Source: Scenedesmus sp. PABB004
Lineage: Eukaryota
Length of the DNA: 64,000 nt
Assembly: GCA_014905635.1 (NCBI GenBank)
Contig: JABVCE010000027.1
Span: 124,001-188,000, forward strand
Direction: 5' to 3'
Shown: positions 9,101-62,782 of the stretch, piece after piece
How the letters are laid out: each line of letters opens with the position of its first letter
Position numbering within the stretch: the first letter of the stretch is position 1
Position numbers and translations under genes: made by a program
The notes under the pieces: model-generated
What the model was told of the DNA's origin: nothing
What the model saw: only the letters and a program-made list of their open reading frames with translations
Database searches by the model: none

Positions 9101-10131
9101 GGGTGTGTGAGCGCGTGTGTGCGAGCGTGTGTTTGGGGGAGAGGGGGGGGGGTGAGGCGCCGGAGCGTGAGCGTGAGCTGCCCGGGCGCGGCGGCGAGGC
9201 CCGCGTGCCCCCTGCTCCACGTGCCCGCCAAGCACCAACCCAACCCCTAAAAACCCTAAACCCTGAGCCCTCCACTACCCCCCCCCCACCTTCATGACCT
9301 CCACCTCGGCGTAGGGCTGCCCCGCGGCCACGTGCTCCCCGTCCGCGACGAGCATGCGCACGAGCTTGCCGGGGCTCTGCGCGCGCGCGCGGGCGGGGTC
9401 CAGCGCCGCGGCGGCGGCGCGGGGCTCGGCGCCACCCCAGGGCGTCGCCCGGGGCGCGCGCCCCGGCTCGGCCCCCTGCCCACAGCTGCCCCCCGCCCGC
9501 GCCGCGCGCCGCGCGCCGCGGGCCGCCCCCCCCCCTCCCCGCCCCGGCCCCCGCCCCACCTGCGCGACGAGGCGGCTGGGGTCGGCCTCCTTGGCAATGA
9601 GGCAGGAGAGCGTGTCCATCACCAGCCGCGTGCCCATCGCCTCCTCCTCAGTGTGCAGCACGTGGCCCTCGCCGTCAACCTGCGCCGCAGCGGGCGGCGG
9701 GCGGCGGGCGGTCAGCGCGCGCGGCGCGGTCGGCGCGGTCGGCGCGCCGGCCTCGCCGGCCTCGCGGCGGCGGCGGGCGCAAACATCCGCCCCCGCGCGC
9801 GCCGCGCGCGCCGCCCAGCCCCGCCCCCGCAGCGCACGCAGCCCAGCCCCTGCCTAAACCCCGCCGCGCCCACGCCGCGCCGCGCGCGCGCGCCTGCAGC
9901 AGGAAGCCGCCGTCGCCGAGCTTGCGCGCCCAGACGTCGACGTTGGTGTCGTTGACGGCGACGTTGAAGATGAACGGCGCGCGGCGGATGACGCGCACGT
10001 GGTACTTGGTGTCGTCGATCACCAGGTCGTCCTGTGCCGTGACGGCGGTTTAGGGCGGCGTTGAGGGCGGGGTTTAGGGCGGGGTTTGTTGAGGGGGGTT
10101 ATTGAGGGGGCGCGCGGCAAGGCGTCACACA

Positions 10132-10167
<36 letters not shown>

Positions 10168-13100
10168 CACGCACAAAACAAAACACACGAGCAGCCACAC
10201 CGCGCGCGCGCGAGCCACCGCGCGCGGCGCCCAGGCCCACCTGGAAGTAGATGAGGCTGATGTCGGGCGGCGGCAGCTGGCCCTTGGCGAGGAAGCCCAG
10301 GTACTCGGCCGCCTTGCACGCAAACGCCTCGTGCGCGCGCACCGCGGCGGCGCCGATGACGCACAGGTGCCACGGCGGGCGCTCGGCCTTGACGTTGGCC
10401 GCGATGCGGCTGTCCAGCCAGCCGGTGTGGATGTCGTTGTTCACAAACTCGGGGCTCTGGGGGGTGGGGTTGGAGGGCGCGGCGGCGGGCGGACGGGTCA
10501 GCCGGGGATCGGCGGCGGGTCGGCGGCGGCGCGCGCGCCCGCCAGAGCCCCGGCCGGGGTTCAGGGGCCCAGGCCCCCCAGGTTGAGGCGCCCGTAAGCC
10601 CCTGCCGCCGCCGCCGCCCCCGCCGCGGCGCGCGCCTGCAGCATGTCTGCCGCGTAGTCGATGATGGTGTGGATCTCCCCCCGCACGCGCACGTCGCGCA
10701 GCGCGACCACCATCGCGCGCGTCGCCGCCTCGCGCGTCGGGCCCTGCGCAAAGAGGTGACCAAACTGCGCGCGGCGCGCGGCGGCGGGGTGCGGGAGCGC
10801 GGGGCGGTGCGAGGGAGCGGGGTGAGCGCCGGCGCGCGCGGCGGCGCCGCGTGCGCTGCGGCCGCTCCCGCCCCGCCGCGCAGCGGCCCAGGCCGGCGCG
10901 CCCACCACCGCCCGCGCCCCCTGAAACCCACCGTCCTAAACCCCAAACCCCGCACCCCAAACCCTGGTCCCCCCCCCCCCCGCGCCGCACCTGGCTGTCG
11001 CTGTACTCGTGGATGCCGCCGCCGCCCTTGACGCTGAAGTAGCCCCACACCTCGGGCGTGGGCTTGAACACGACCTGGGGGCGGCGGCGAGGGCAGGCGG
11101 CGGGGGCGGCGGGCGCGGGTGAGGGGGGGTGGAGGCGGGCGGGCGCGCGAGGGCGATGTGCCATCGCGAGCCAACAGAAACGCGGCGCGCAGCACGCAGG
11201 CCGCAGCACCCAGCGCGCGGCGTGGCGGCGCGGCGCACCTCGTCGACGCGGCCCGCGGTGGGCTTGAAGCCGTCGCCCGCGTTCTCGCTCGTGATGCGCA
11301 CCGCGACGACGTGCTTGGCGGGCAGGCGCTGCGGCGTGGTCTCGAGGTCGAAAAAGTCAGAGCCTGGGCAGGGCGGGTGCGAGTGCGTGGGCGGGCGGGG
11401 AGGAGTGAGTGAGTGGAGGAGGGAGGGGCGCGGGTGAGGGAGGGGCGCATGAGCGGGGCGCGAGCGTGCGAGGGAGGCGCGCGTGCGTGAGGGCGCGAGT
11501 GCGTGAGGAGGGGCGTGAGTGGTGCACGCCCTGGCTGCCAACACCGCTGGCCAGCGCATTCACCACACACGCCGCTCATCACGCACTCGAGCCCTCACCA
11601 CCCACACCCACCCACACACACACACACGCACACCCACACGCGCGCGCAGCCAGCGCCGCGCGCACCCGCGGGGTCCATGCTGAACGACTGGCGTATGCCG
11701 GGCATGCGCCAGAGGGGGATGCCCATGCCGACCATGAGCTGCAGGCTGGGGATGTTGGTGTCGGTGATGCCCTCCGTCACCGGGTGCTCCACCTAGCAGG
11801 CGGCGCGGGCGGGGCGTGTGTGTGAGCGAGTGTGTGAGCGCGTGCGCGCGCGCGTGTGAGTGAGTGTGTGTGCCGCGCCGCGCCCCAGGCGAGGGGGCTC
11901 CCCGCCGCCCCCTCGACCGCCTCCCTTCCGCCCTTCCGCGCGGTCAAACGACCATAACATGACAACATGACAACATAACACACACAGTAACGCACCTGGA
12001 GGCGGGGGTTGAGCTCGAGGAAGCAGTACTTGCGCTCCTCAATGAGGTACAGGTACTCCACCGTCGCGGCGCCCACGTAGCCGACGCTGCGCGCGAGCGC
12101 GCGCGCGCAGCGCTCCATGTCGCGCAGGACCTGTGGGTGAAGCGGCGCGGGGTGTGGGCGGGCGGGCGGGCGGGGTGCGGGCGGGAGGGAGGAGCGGGGG
12201 TGTGGGCGAGGGCGGGGGGTGGTGCGCGAGGGCGGGGGGGGGGGGGGAGAGAGCCGGGCGCCGCCGCGCGCGCGCCGCTCCCCCTCCCCGCCGGCTGGCC
12301 CCTCCTCCCGCGCGCGCGCCGCGCCGCGCGTCACCTCCTGCGGCGCGGCCATGGCGGGCCCCTCCTCGATGATCTTCTGGTGGCGGCGCTGCACGCTGCA
12401 GTCGCGCGTGAAGAGGGAGACAACGTTGCCGTGCGCGTCGGCGACGAGCTGCACCTCCAGGTGCCGGCTCAGCGGCGCGAGCTTCATCGCAAAGATGGGG
12501 CTGCCGGGGACCTGTGGCGCCACGTCATGTGACGTGTGATGGGAGGGACAGGGGGCGGGGCGCGACGGCAGCGCGCGCGTGAGCAGAGCCCTCCTCCAGC
12601 AGAGCAGGGCCGGCGGGGGCCGACCGCCGCGCCGCGCCGCGCTCCCCCGCGCACGCCGCGCCGCGCCGCGCCGCCCGCCGCGCGGCGTGCAGCCCAGCCC
12701 CGCCCCCTCCCCTCCTCGCCGCCGGCGCCGCGCGTCGCACCTCGCCCTTGATCTGGTTGAACACCTGGCGGACCTCGTCGTCGCTGTGCACCTTGCGGAT
12801 GCCCTTGCCGCCGCCGCCCCAGCTCGCCTTGAGCATGATGGGGTACCTGGGGGTTTAGCAGAAAGGCGGGGGCGGGGGTTTAGCGAGAGGCGGGGGCGGG
12901 GGTTTAGGGAGGCTGAGGCGGGGCAGGCGTTGGAGAGGCGGCCCGGCGGCCCCCGGGCGCGGCCGCACGCGCGCTGCTGCTGCTGCCGCCCCCACGCGGC
13001 GCGCGGCGGCGCGCACCCGATGCGCTTGCAGCTCTCGATCGCCTCCTCCAGGCTCTCCACGCAGGCCTTGCGGTAGATCTCCTCAGGGATGTCGCCCTGC

Positions 13101-41757: not shown

Positions 41758-48066
<6,309 letters not shown>

Positions 48067-61057: not shown

Positions 61058-61809
61058 GCCGCCGCGGCGCGCCGCCGCGCGACCGCCGCCGCTGCGCGGC
61101 CCCGCGCTGAGCGCGCGGGGGGCCTAGCTGCGCCGCGGGGCTGCCATGCGCGTGCCGCGCACTCTCTGACGCCGGGTCGCCCGGGCGCGGCGCGCGGTGC
61201 TGCGCCGCAGGGGCGCGCCGGCGGCACCGGCGCCGGCGCTGATGTTCTGCTCCCCTGGCGCGGGCCGGCGCCGCGGCGTTGCGGCCACGCCGGCGACGGC
61301 TTGCGCGGCACGAGGCGGCCTCTCGGCGGCTGGCTGGCGGCCTGGGCGGCCTGCGCGCGCAAAAACTGCTGTCGCCGGCTCGGGTGGAAGCGGGGTGCCA
61401 GCGCGCGTGGGGTCACCTCTGACCGCGCCCGAGCGTCCGCGGCGGCGGTTGGGCGCGCCCCGCGGCGGGAGGCGGAGGGGCGCGACCTTTGACACCCGGC
61501 GCGCGCGCTGCGGCCGCCCGCCGCACGCTAGATCGGCCGAACACCCGCCGTCCTCACTGCCACGCCGCGACCGATCGCTACGACCCGCGCCGCCGCCGCC
61601 AGGATTCGCGCCCAGCCGCTGCTGGCAGCGCTGCCCCGGCCGCCGCGCCCAGCTCCCGGCGCCCTCCCAGCCGCGGCGCCCGGCGCAGGCGGTCCGCCCG
61701 GCCGCCCTCCTCCTCCCTGGCATGCGCGCCGCCGCGGCGGCCGGCGGCGCGTGAGCGGCGGCGGGGCCGCGCGCGAGCAGCGGCGGCGGGGCCACGCGCA
61801 GCAGCCGCC

Positions 61810-62782
61810 ATGTTCCGGAACACCTTCCAGAGCGGCTTCCTCAGCGTCCTCTACTCCATCGGCAGCAACCCGCTGCAGATTTGGGACAAGGAGGGTGCGC
61901 GACGCGGCCGCCGCGCGACGCGGCCAGCGCACGCCGCTGCTCGCACCCCTCGCGGCGCGGCCGAGCCGCGCGCGGCCGCCGTGCCCACCGCGGCGCCGCC
62001 GCCGCCACGCCGCCGCCGCTGCGCTGCGCTGCACGGCGCGCAGTGCGGCAGGGCCACGTCAAGCGCGTGACCGACGAGACGCTGCAGAGCGAGGTGCTCG
62101 AGCTCGCGGGCGAGAGCGTCGCCGCGGTGTTTGTCACGTGCCCCGCCGACCCCGCAAAGACGCTCGGCATCAAGCTCCCCTTCCTGGTGCTGGTCGTGAA
62201 GAACCTCACAAAGTACTTTAGCTTCGAGGTCCAGGTCCTCGACGACAAGAACGTGCGGCGCCGCTTCCGCGCGAGCAACTACCAGGCGCGGCGGCGGCGG
62301 CGCACGGCGGCGGCGGGGCGCGGCGGCGCGGCGGGTCGCGGCGGGGCGCGGCGGGCCGCGGCGGGCCGCGGCGGGGCGCGGCGGCGGCGGCGCGGGCGTG
62401 CGAGCCGGCGTCGCGCGGCGCGCGCGCGCAGAGCTCCACGCGCGTGAAGCCCTTCATCTGCACCATGCCGCTGCGCCTCGACGAGGGCTGGAACACCGTG
62501 TCCCTCAACCTCGCCGACCTCGTGCGCCGCGTGTACGGTGGGCGCGCGGCGCGCGGCGGGCGGGCGGGCGGGCGGGCGGCGGCCCCGCGCCTCGGAGAGC
62601 CTGGCGGCGCCGCCCACGCCGGCCGCTCGCGGCGCGCCGCGCCGCGCGCAGGCACCAACTACGTGGAGGCGCTGCGGCTGCAGGTGCACGCCAACTGCCG
62701 CGTGCGCCGCATCTACTTTGCCGACCGCCAGTACGCGGAGGAGGAGCTGCCGCCCGAGTTCAAGCTCTACGTGCCCGCCTGA
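61810..62782 (+). CDS. CFAP20: CFAP20/BUG22 (DUF667), 3 introns
   Basis: [97 protein letters not shown]. Confidence 0.97.

Follow-up and report, generated by a model that had tools for sequence, protein, structure and literature searches.

Two intronic hairpins with an identical 47-nt arm in an extremely GC-rich alga: a possible dispersed fold-back repeat

Two long introns in unrelated genes of the window (the whole stretch of DNA analysed, 64,000 nucleotides with a GC content of 79%) carry hairpins that are co-oriented with transcription and have one 47-nt arm in common. We give a probability of about one half to the reading that both sites derive from one dispersed intronic fold-back repeat, which arose by transposon-like duplication and may be a substrate for Dicer. 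The evidence for this reading, and for the alternatives in which the shared arm is a selected small-RNA source, the product of gene conversion, part of an intron-creating element or a structural aid to splicing, is presented below.

Results

Extent of the shared sequence

The identical block that the initial annotation had placed in two introns is an exact match between positions 11496-11542 (copy A) and 43896-43942 (copy B), both on the minus strand. None of 100 shuffles gave any such match, and no further copy of the 47-mer was found elsewhere in the 64-kb window, even with up to 3 mismatches allowed. On the transcript of copy A the block constitutes the 3' arm of a stem-loop and 3-4 loop bases. 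The identity is contiguous: it covers the whole arm, extends 3-4 nt into the unpaired loop and is sharply bordered, at one end by the loop and at the opposite end by a 1-nt indel. Such a contiguous whole-arm identity reaching into the loop is more in keeping with a tract of copying or conversion than with a functional core of 21 nt.

Homology between the copies is wider than the conserved arm alone. It spans approximately 135-140 nt in pairwise alignment, and in a dust-masked BLAST comparison copy A matched copy B across 190 nt with an E value of 1.4e-27. Alignments and segment counts delimit a homologous block of ~142 nt in copy A (11455..11596, minus strand), which includes both arms, the loop and ~40 nt of 3' flank, and one of ~134 nt in copy B (43859..43992, minus strand). 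The two copies lie 32.4 kb apart in the same orientation and have a common layout, in which a GU-rich lead-in is followed by the 5' arm, a variable apical part, the 47-nt 3' arm and the ~40-nt 3' flank. That the homology reaches clearly beyond the arm counts in favor of a fold-back repeat. The flank, situated at the lower coordinates, is a degenerate 17-nt tandem repeat that continues into the 47-mer (TRF), and the element is made of low-complexity units.

In the BLAST comparison of the window with itself the pair was the sole real dispersed repeat, the only other repeat pair being a (GGC)n tract. A covariance model built from both copies recovered these two sites only, with the next match at an E value of 0.012; the weak matches at 12526-12601 (E 0.012) and 10076-10182 (E 0.017) proved unrelated in sequence and were rejected.

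Host genes and introns

Intron A (11364..11665, minus strand, 302 nt) was delimited by its GT..AG ends and a continuous reading frame in a gene for homomeric acetyl-CoA carboxylase (ACCase), where it separates, within the biotin carboxylase region, the ATP-grasp part from the C-terminal part; the Pfam domains CPSase_L_D2 and Biotin_carb_N were found in frames upstream of it. Intron B (43728..44082, minus strand), also defined by GT..AG ends and frame, lies within the AAA_2 domain of a Clp/Hsp100 ATPase gene, with positions 1-32 of the Pfam profile matched upstream and positions 32-73 downstream; Clp_N, AAA_lid_9 and ClpB_D2-small domains are also present in this gene (Pfam). Of the intron lengths given originally, 302 and 356 nt, the first was reproduced, whereas the second reads 355 nt. 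By their Pfam domains the two hosts are unrelated, as had been proposed, and this rules out gene duplication as the source of the shared sequence and indicates that the element itself was copied. Each of the host genes is encoded on the minus strand and each hairpin is sense, in agreement with the claim that they have the same orientation to transcription.

A (GU)n-rich tract preceding the hairpins on the pre-mRNA was likewise present in both introns. In intron A a degenerate (GU)n/G-rich tract of period 10 is found directly 5' of the hairpin on the transcript (11598..11639, minus strand; TRF), and in intron B the sequence begins at the 5' splice site with a pure (GU)n tract of ~35 units (44012..44082, minus strand). 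The base of hairpin A is 62 nt away from the 5' splice site and 117 nt from the 3' splice site, with corresponding distances of 92 and 159 nt for hairpin B. Another intron of the ACCase gene contains a third strong hairpin, which is unrelated to the pair.

Folding of the two copies

In minus sense each copy folds into a single long hairpin, with the 47-nt block as one arm in both places as originally described. Hairpin A (11481..11603, minus strand) has an imperfect stem of ~55 bp and a folding energy of -93.8 kcal/mol (z -8.15), and hairpin B (43887..43990, minus strand) has -81.1 kcal/mol (z -5.98); none of 200 shuffles of either copy folded as well. An inverted-repeat search detected 49-nt arms with 86% complementarity in copy A. 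Raw folding energy by itself does not set the two hairpins apart from the rest of the window, since folding is stronger still in windows with more than 90% GC. The GC-adjusted residual, in contrast, ranked hairpin A first and hairpin B second among 3195 windows, both strands included.

The plus sense folded to -87.4 kcal/mol (z -9.45) for hairpin A and -82.5 kcal/mol (z -6.97) for hairpin B. The two strands thus fold equally well, and this is true of the hairpins as well as of the entire introns. Equal folding of either strand is what an inverted repeat at the DNA level predicts, and it argues for the repeat.

Within the 47-nt core 37 positions are paired in copy A and 35 in copy B. Core position 36 is unpaired in both, with C opposite U, which bears out the claim that the copies keep a mismatch at the same stem position. 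In plants and algae, miRNA genes are recognized by a duplex with few mismatches and without large asymmetric bulges, by precise 20-24 nt reads of the miRNA and its star strand with 2-nt 3' overhangs, by Dicer-like dependence and Argonaute loading in an organism that has RNAi genes, by assignment to a described family and, among paralogues, by a mature arm that is conserved above the star arm and the flanks. The 21 nt at core positions 20-40 form a duplex of the kind expected between a miRNA and its star strand: 3 positions are unpaired in copy A and 1 in copy B, all of them in 1x1 mismatches, with no large asymmetric bulge.

The lower stem contains 3 mismatches in copy A vs 1 in copy B. Among 32 consensus pairs of the hairpin 28 are invariant, 4 vary on one side and none has changed on both, and the lack of compensatory double changes means that there is no covariation support for a selected RNA structure. 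The initial annotation had described a partner arm that drifts but keeps pairing; this holds for two of the four lower-stem changes, which yield G.U pairs, and fails for the other two, which break the pair in copy A.

Asymmetry between the arms

Identical columns number 23 of 27 in the lower stem of the 5' arm, 47 of 47 in the core and 33 of 41 in the 3' flank, where looser similarity toward lower coordinates, previously put at ~35 nt, is seen over ~40 nt. In the apical part only 4 of 19 columns are identical, and there are 4 gaps. The statement that the partner arms and loops differ in sequence holds for the apical part and is overstated for the lower arms.

Counted by differing columns, the 47-mer (0/47) departs from the opposite arm (19/46; Fisher's test, p 1.4e-7) and from the flank (8/41; p 0.0015), whereas for the lower stem alone p is 0.11. 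An identical run of at least 47 columns has a probability of 4e-5 if all differences are placed at random, and of 0.015 in a conservative count that leaves out the scrambled apical columns (12 differing columns in 115). The 47-mer appears better kept than its surroundings. The significance is high with all differences counted singly and marginal (p 0.015-0.11) with the apical scramble taken as a few events; the statistics compare two sequences only. Asymmetry of this sort is the expectation of selection on one arm and is not predicted by a neutral repeat, and to that extent it speaks against the repeat reading.

Signs of mobility and of small-RNA function

No target-site duplication of 6 nt or longer was found at the borders of the homology. 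The matches seen there are 4-5 nt long, differ between the copies and are at chance level, the borders of the element being fuzzy. The homology continues ~40 nt past the hairpin on one side only, so the arms do not look like clean terminal inverted repeats, another point against the repeat reading. Pfam searches of the window's 422 ORFs with a length of 100 aa or more identified no transposase, reverse transcriptase or integrase domain. They also identified no PAZ, Piwi or RNase III domain, a result that applies to the window and is silent on the rest of the genome.

At gathering thresholds Rfam gave no match, and the pair does not fall into any miRNA family described there; the best sub-threshold match was MIR1858 (54.3 bits vs a gathering threshold of 137), and the two strands scored similarly. 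A full-text literature search for six 17-mers taken from the block gave no match. Exact scans with sub-stretches of the 47-mer returned no hit in metagenome, viral and prokaryote contigs, collections that are not expected to contain a eukaryotic alga. Within the window there was no site with 3 or fewer mismatches to the candidate guide, and the six sites with 4 mismatches were all of low complexity.

Two other classes of non-coding RNA were rejected. An intronic snoRNA would need boxes C and D, or H and ACA, at the proper positions, and here the set is incomplete: UGAUGA occurs in copy A alone, within its 5' arm, and CUGA is lacking near the 3' end. The single snoRNA match in Rfam scored 9.9 bits with an E value of 9.4. 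A tRNA or SINE head was dismissed after ARAGORN reported no genes.

Discussion

A dispersed fold-back repeat

In the reading that we prefer, one short (~135-165 nt) fold-back repeat would have spread duplicatively, in the manner of a transposon, into introns of two unrelated genes, where it is probably tolerated because it is removed with the intron on splicing. When the host gene is transcribed, the sense copy would fold into an imperfect double-stranded stem of ~50 bp, and such a stem would naturally lend itself to cleavage by a Dicer-like enzyme, provided that the organism possesses one. As a foldable candidate Dicer substrate the repeat is read, at most, as a proto-miRNA or a source of hairpin siRNA. 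The 47-nt identity would most simply be the portion that has changed least between two copies diverged by ~10% outside the scrambled apical segment, and a short ectopic conversion tract may have contributed to it. MITEs and other fold-back DNA transposons typically have terminal inverted repeats, flanking target-site duplications and many dispersed copies in either orientation. The finding of just two copies in 64 kb, both intronic and both sense, counts against the repeat reading, as does the lack of transposase, reverse transcriptase and integrase domains among the window's ORFs.

That hairpins of miRNAs can originate from inverted-repeat transposons is documented in the excerpted texts of PMC1784062 (hsa-mir-548, derived from Made1) and PMC9641971 (plant miRNA genes). 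The present pair resembles these MITE-derived genes, as far as the excerpts portray them, in that it is short, dispersed and non-coding and that read-through transcription of its inverted repeat gives a near-perfect hairpin. It differs from them in having no target-site duplication, in the homology that passes the inverted repeat on one side, in its copy number (two in the 64-kb window) and in the lack of a cognate transposase in the window.

Selection on one arm

According to the foremost alternative, which we regard as rather unlikely, the hairpins are members of a lineage-specific family of small RNAs made from introns, either miRNAs or hairpin small RNAs. One or two small RNAs would be cut from the transcript 3' arm by a Dicer-like enzyme, and selection would freeze the 47-mer while the other arm decays. 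The arm asymmetry is what such selection should produce, both against the opposite arm and against the flank, and all 4 lower-stem changes that can be polarized are on the 5' arm. The 21-nt window of the core has 3 and 1 unpaired positions, all symmetric, both copies are intronic and sense, and after GC adjustment the pair comprises the two most exceptional hairpins in 64 kb. The identity, however, runs through 47 nt and includes loop bases, unlike the conservation of miRNAs, which is centered on a core of ~21 nt; two of the four lower-stem changes break pairs, and folding has no strand preference. Furthermore, the Rfam matches are sub-threshold, generic and on both strands, a target-like site with 3 or fewer mismatches is absent from the window, and with two copies only the asymmetry becomes marginal under conservative counting (P 0.015; lower stem p 0.11).

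A precedent for intronic miRNAs exists in Chlamydomonas, where, in the excerpted part of PMC4817775 (Valli et al. 2016), 9 of the high-confidence miRNAs are described as intronic and DCL3-dependent, with splicing not required. The precursors in Chlamydomonas reinhardtii, such as cre-miR1157 in the same excerpt, are likewise sense stem-loops in spliceosomal introns of protein-coding genes. The stem-loops studied here are situated away from the splice sites, so their processing would be independent of splicing, as reported for Chlamydomonas in that text. Here, unlike in the Chlamydomonas precursors as presented there, the same hairpin occurs in two unrelated genes, and in contrast to known miRNA families the pair has no relation by sequence or through Rfam. 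Mirtrons (Ruby et al. 2007, as cited in the excerpt of PMC4817775) are also intronic hairpins, but the hairpin ends found here, 62-159 nt from the splice sites (62/117 nt in A and 92/159 nt in B), mean that the intron itself is not the pre-miRNA, and a mirtron was ruled out.

In its fullest form, which we hold to be unlikely, the 47-mer would be the selected, guide-bearing arm of a lineage-specific intron-hosted family of miRNAs or hairpin small RNAs in an extremely GC-rich alga. A mobile fold-back module would have spread this family into housekeeping genes (the ACCase of lipid synthesis and the Clp chaperone), with its output coupled to transcription of the host.

Gene conversion without selection

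It is quite improbable, in our estimate, that the 47-nt identity stems from a short and recent event of ectopic gene conversion between old copies of the repeat, with no selection acting on the arm. The single contiguous tract with its sharp borders at the loop and the 1-nt indel is compatible with conversion, as are the co-orientation and the 32.4-kb distance of the copies. Copy A, with its 3 lower-stem mismatches against 1 in B, could be the recipient, and the 79% GC of the window may suggest that gene conversion in this genome is strongly biased. There is, however, no direct sign of conversion, its limits would need to agree almost exactly with those of one arm, and a run of 47 identical columns can arise by chance in ~1.5% of cases (12 of 115 columns differing), so that conversion is not required.

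Introners and structural elements

We consider it very unlikely that the repeat is an introner-like element, that is, a mobile repeat that created the introns on insertion and whose hairpin helps to bring the splice sites together. Introners of algae and protists (Gozashti et al. 2022, PMC9860276) are, in the excerpts of that work, also related sequences that sit in the introns of unrelated genes and run in the direction of transcription; their main reported hosts there are aquatic protists, algae included, and inverted repeats or site duplications are seen in some of the families. In intron A, moreover, GU-rich 5' and C-rich 3' parts extend the stem over most of the intron (z -6.9 for the whole intron). 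On the other hand, the similarity within an introner family should, by the same excerpts, begin and end near the intron-exon borders. In our pair it stops short of them except for low-complexity sequence, (GU)n and C-rich, which is all that the intron ends share. Unique homology is confined to the interior of the introns, beginning 62-92 nt after the 5' splice site and ending 117-159 nt before the 3' splice site. Only two of the many introns of the intron-rich genes in the 64-kb window carry the repeat, and a site duplication was not found.

A purely structural element with no small-RNA role is highly improbable. In this reading the hairpin would bring the branch point effectively closer to the 5' splice site in introns that are long and extremely rich in GC. 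In its favor, each hairpin is placed after the 5' splice site and ahead of branch-point-like motifs, and the third, unrelated strong hairpin sits in another ACCase intron. Against it, the reading leaves unexplained that two unrelated introns share sequence and one identical arm, and most introns of both genes have no such hairpin.

Implications

If no small RNAs are made from the two stems, the dispersed fold-back repeat would be an ordinary one, useful chiefly as a caution that in low-complexity introns of 79% GC even a perfect 47-nt identity between two hairpins does not by itself amount to a small-RNA gene. Judged by its sequence, the shared hairpin repeat could nevertheless be raw material for a small regulatory RNA, and the pair consists of one near-perfect stem and one that is more decayed. 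Should the frozen arm in fact yield small RNAs, the two introns would harbor a miRNA family emerging from a mobile hairpin of introns, in a lineage that is extremely GC-rich and poorly studied.

Two copies of a hairpin with one identical arm

Scanning of the whole window found the 47-nt block at two exact sites, 11496-11542 (copy A) and 43896-43942 (copy B). There was no third site in the window at up to 3 mismatches, and none of 100 dinucleotide-preserving shuffles of the window (79% G+C, zero N) contained a match. As the initial annotation had claimed, the block forms one arm of a stem-loop at both places. On the transcribed minus strand it is the 3' arm of hairpin A (11481-11603; -93.8 kcal/mol, z -8.15) and of hairpin B (43887-43990; -81.1 kcal/mol, z -5.98), and neither value was equaled in 200 shuffles. 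The raw folding energies are unexceptional because windows of more than 90% GC fold more strongly still; when energy was regressed on GC over 3195 overlapping 120-nt windows, the two sites ranked first and second on either strand. In an inverted-repeat search copy A was the top hit outside triplet and simple repeats, with 49-nt arms of 86% complementarity. Paired core positions number 37 of 47 in A and 35 of 47 in B, and the mismatch described at the same stem position was found at core position 36, where C is opposite U in both copies.

A third strong hairpin was detected at 2390-2495 in another minus-strand intron (~2283-2622) of the acetyl-CoA carboxylase (ACCase) gene. It has 44-nt arms (84% complementarity, z -5.39), ranks third of the 3195 GC-adjusted windows on the plus strand, and is unrelated in sequence to the repeated element. 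Long hairpins may be a recurring trait of introns in this window.

Host introns

Both hairpins lie in introns of minus-strand genes, as proposed, and the two genes are unrelated. Intron A (11364-11665, 302 nt) belongs to a homomeric multi-domain ACCase gene covering ~0.2-14.9 kb of the window, with Carboxyl_trans, ACC_central, Biotin_lipoyl, ACCA_BT, CPSase_L_D2 and Biotin_carb_N domains, all in minus-strand frames. Intron B (43728-44082; 355 nt, initially given as 356) is in a Clp/Hsp100 gene with ClpB_D2-small, AAA_2, AAA_lid_9 and Clp_N domains, and splits AAA_2 (profile positions 1-32 in the upstream exon, 32-73 in the downstream exon). Both introns were delimited by GT..AG borders and frame continuity. 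Distances of 62 and 117 nt (A) and 92 and 159 nt (B) separate the hairpin bases from the splice sites; neither hairpin is therefore a mirtron.

The GU-rich tract reported 5' of each hairpin on the transcript is present in both introns, degenerate in A (11598-11639) and a pure (GU)n of ~35 units in B (44012-44082). The latter starts at the 5' splice site, so that the donor GU belongs to the microsatellite, and changes in repeat length could shift or duplicate the donor. Intron B also contains an AT-rich island (43760-43800) amid the GC-rich window; on the transcript it consists of tandem repeats that precede the 3' splice site and include several branch-point-like motifs of the CTAAC type. Over 11366-11667 intron A changes from GU/G-rich in its 5' half to C-rich in its 3' half, and the whole folds into a single extended stem that takes in most of the intron (-182.7 kcal/mol, z -6.9).

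The remaining genes of the window have ordinary housekeeping functions: fatty-acid hydroxylase, Myb, NIF phosphatase, Ost5, a WD40/Utp12 protein, acyl-CoA dehydrogenase, CCDC47, formyltransferase, GH47 mannosidase and CFA20. The gene for CFA20 (cilia/flagella-associated protein 20; 61755-62779, plus strand) suggests a flagellated organism. Together with the spliceosomal introns, the Clp_N/AAA_lid_9/AAA_2/D2-small layout and the homomeric ACCase it is consistent with a flagellate green alga, without being proof of one. At this G+C content all six frames are open over long stretches, giving 422 stop-free ORFs of 100 aa or more; true exons form short islands that only Pfam matches reveal, and TRF returned 322 rows of GC-rich tandem repeats for the whole window. 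No transposase, reverse transcriptase, integrase or RNAi domain was found in the 422 ORFs at the thresholds used.

Extent of homology and asymmetry of the arms

Homology between the introns extends beyond the arm, to ~135-140 nt. Identical columns number 23/27 in the lower stem of the 5' arm, 4/19 (with 4 gap columns) in its apical part and the loop, 47/47 in the core, 33/41 in the adjoining 3' flank and 14/31 in the more distant 3' flank. Dust-masked self-comparison of the window recovered this pair (190 nt, E 1.4e-27) and, as the sole other pair, a (GGC)n tract. A covariance model built from both copies matched the window at these two sites only; its next matches (E 0.012 and 0.017) were dismissed as unrelated sequence. 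In the lower-coordinate flank of copy A TRF identified a tandem repeat of degenerate 17-nt units (11419-11515; 5.7 copies, 72% matches) that extends into the beginning of the 47-mer. The arm of copy A is made of minisatellite-like units; the element is thus composed of low-complexity units. No target-site duplication of at least 6 nt was found at the homology borders.

The notion that one arm is frozen stands if every column is counted: 0/47 columns differ in the core against 19/46 in the opposite arm (Fisher p 1.4e-7) and 8/41 in the flank (p 0.0015), and the probability of 47 or more identical columns in a row is 4e-5 with 27 differing columns placed at random. It weakens to 0.015 for the run length when the scrambled apical segment is left out, and to p 0.11 for the lower stem alone (0/27 against 4/27). 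The bulk of the signal stems from this one scrambled segment, which could represent a few complex events, and with two sequences the asymmetry is real but only moderately significant. Polarized by using the copies as reciprocal outgroups, the four lower-stem changes all fall on the 5' arm. Two yield G.U, in line with the proposal that the drifting arm keeps pairing, whereas the other two disrupt a pair in copy A (C.C, U.U); among 32 consensus pairs 28 are invariant, four vary one-sidedly, and compensatory double changes are absent. The identical tract comprises the whole arm plus 3-4 unpaired loop bases; it has the shape of a tract copied or converted in one piece, not that of an ~21-nt guide.

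Strand and RNA-family tests

Plus-strand folds are about equal to those of the minus strand (A, -87.4 kcal/mol, z -9.45; B, -82.5 kcal/mol, z -6.97), and the whole introns compare similarly (minus versus plus: A, -182.7 versus -179 kcal/mol; B, -165.6 versus -154 kcal/mol), so there is no clear RNA-strand signature. Rfam gave zero matches to the element at gathering scores; in E-value mode miRNA precursor models matched, but only as generic long hairpins, on either strand and with scores well short of threshold (best MIR1858, 54.3 bits against 137). ARAGORN detected no tRNA-like sequence, and the element has no complete set of snoRNA boxes. Elsewhere in the window there were no target-like sites at up to 3 mismatches and six low-complexity ones with 4. 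Exact-pattern scans of metagenome, viral and prokaryote collections gave no match to stretches of the 47-mer, nor did a paper search to 17-mers from it.

Interpretation

We favor, with a probability of about 0.5, a dispersed intronic fold-back repeat passively carried in pre-mRNA. Four features fit a fold-back repeat at the level of DNA: symmetric folding on the two strands, absence of covariation, low-complexity composition and contiguity of the identical tract. Since the host genes are unrelated, it is the element that must have been copied, and its distribution is most simply accounted for by a duplicative, transposon-like origin.

A family of true miRNAs or hairpin sRNAs under selection, as first proposed, seems unlikely, though the results above speak neither for nor against miRNAs. 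In Chlamydomonas DCL3 is described as cutting many bona fide miRNAs out of stem-loops within introns, in a manner that does not depend on splicing (PMC4817775). Somewhat less probable still is a short ectopic conversion tract, which by itself could be enough for the perfect 47 nt and is compatible with a fold-back repeat. An introner is improbable: similarity should reach the intron ends by the criterion given in PMC9860276, and the unique similarity of A and B stops short of them. A hairpin assisting splicing is least probable; it leaves the shared sequence unexplained.

According to the fold-back-repeat reading, a duplicative, transposon-like process would have placed the element in introns of unrelated genes, where it would ride passively in the pre-mRNA of its host. 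Once transcribed, it would offer an imperfect ~50-bp stem to any Dicer-like enzyme. Fold-back repeats are a documented origin of new miRNAs (PMC1784062, PMC9641971) and, taken together with the intronic miRNAs of Chlamydomonas, this makes the miRNA idea of the initial annotation biologically reasonable.
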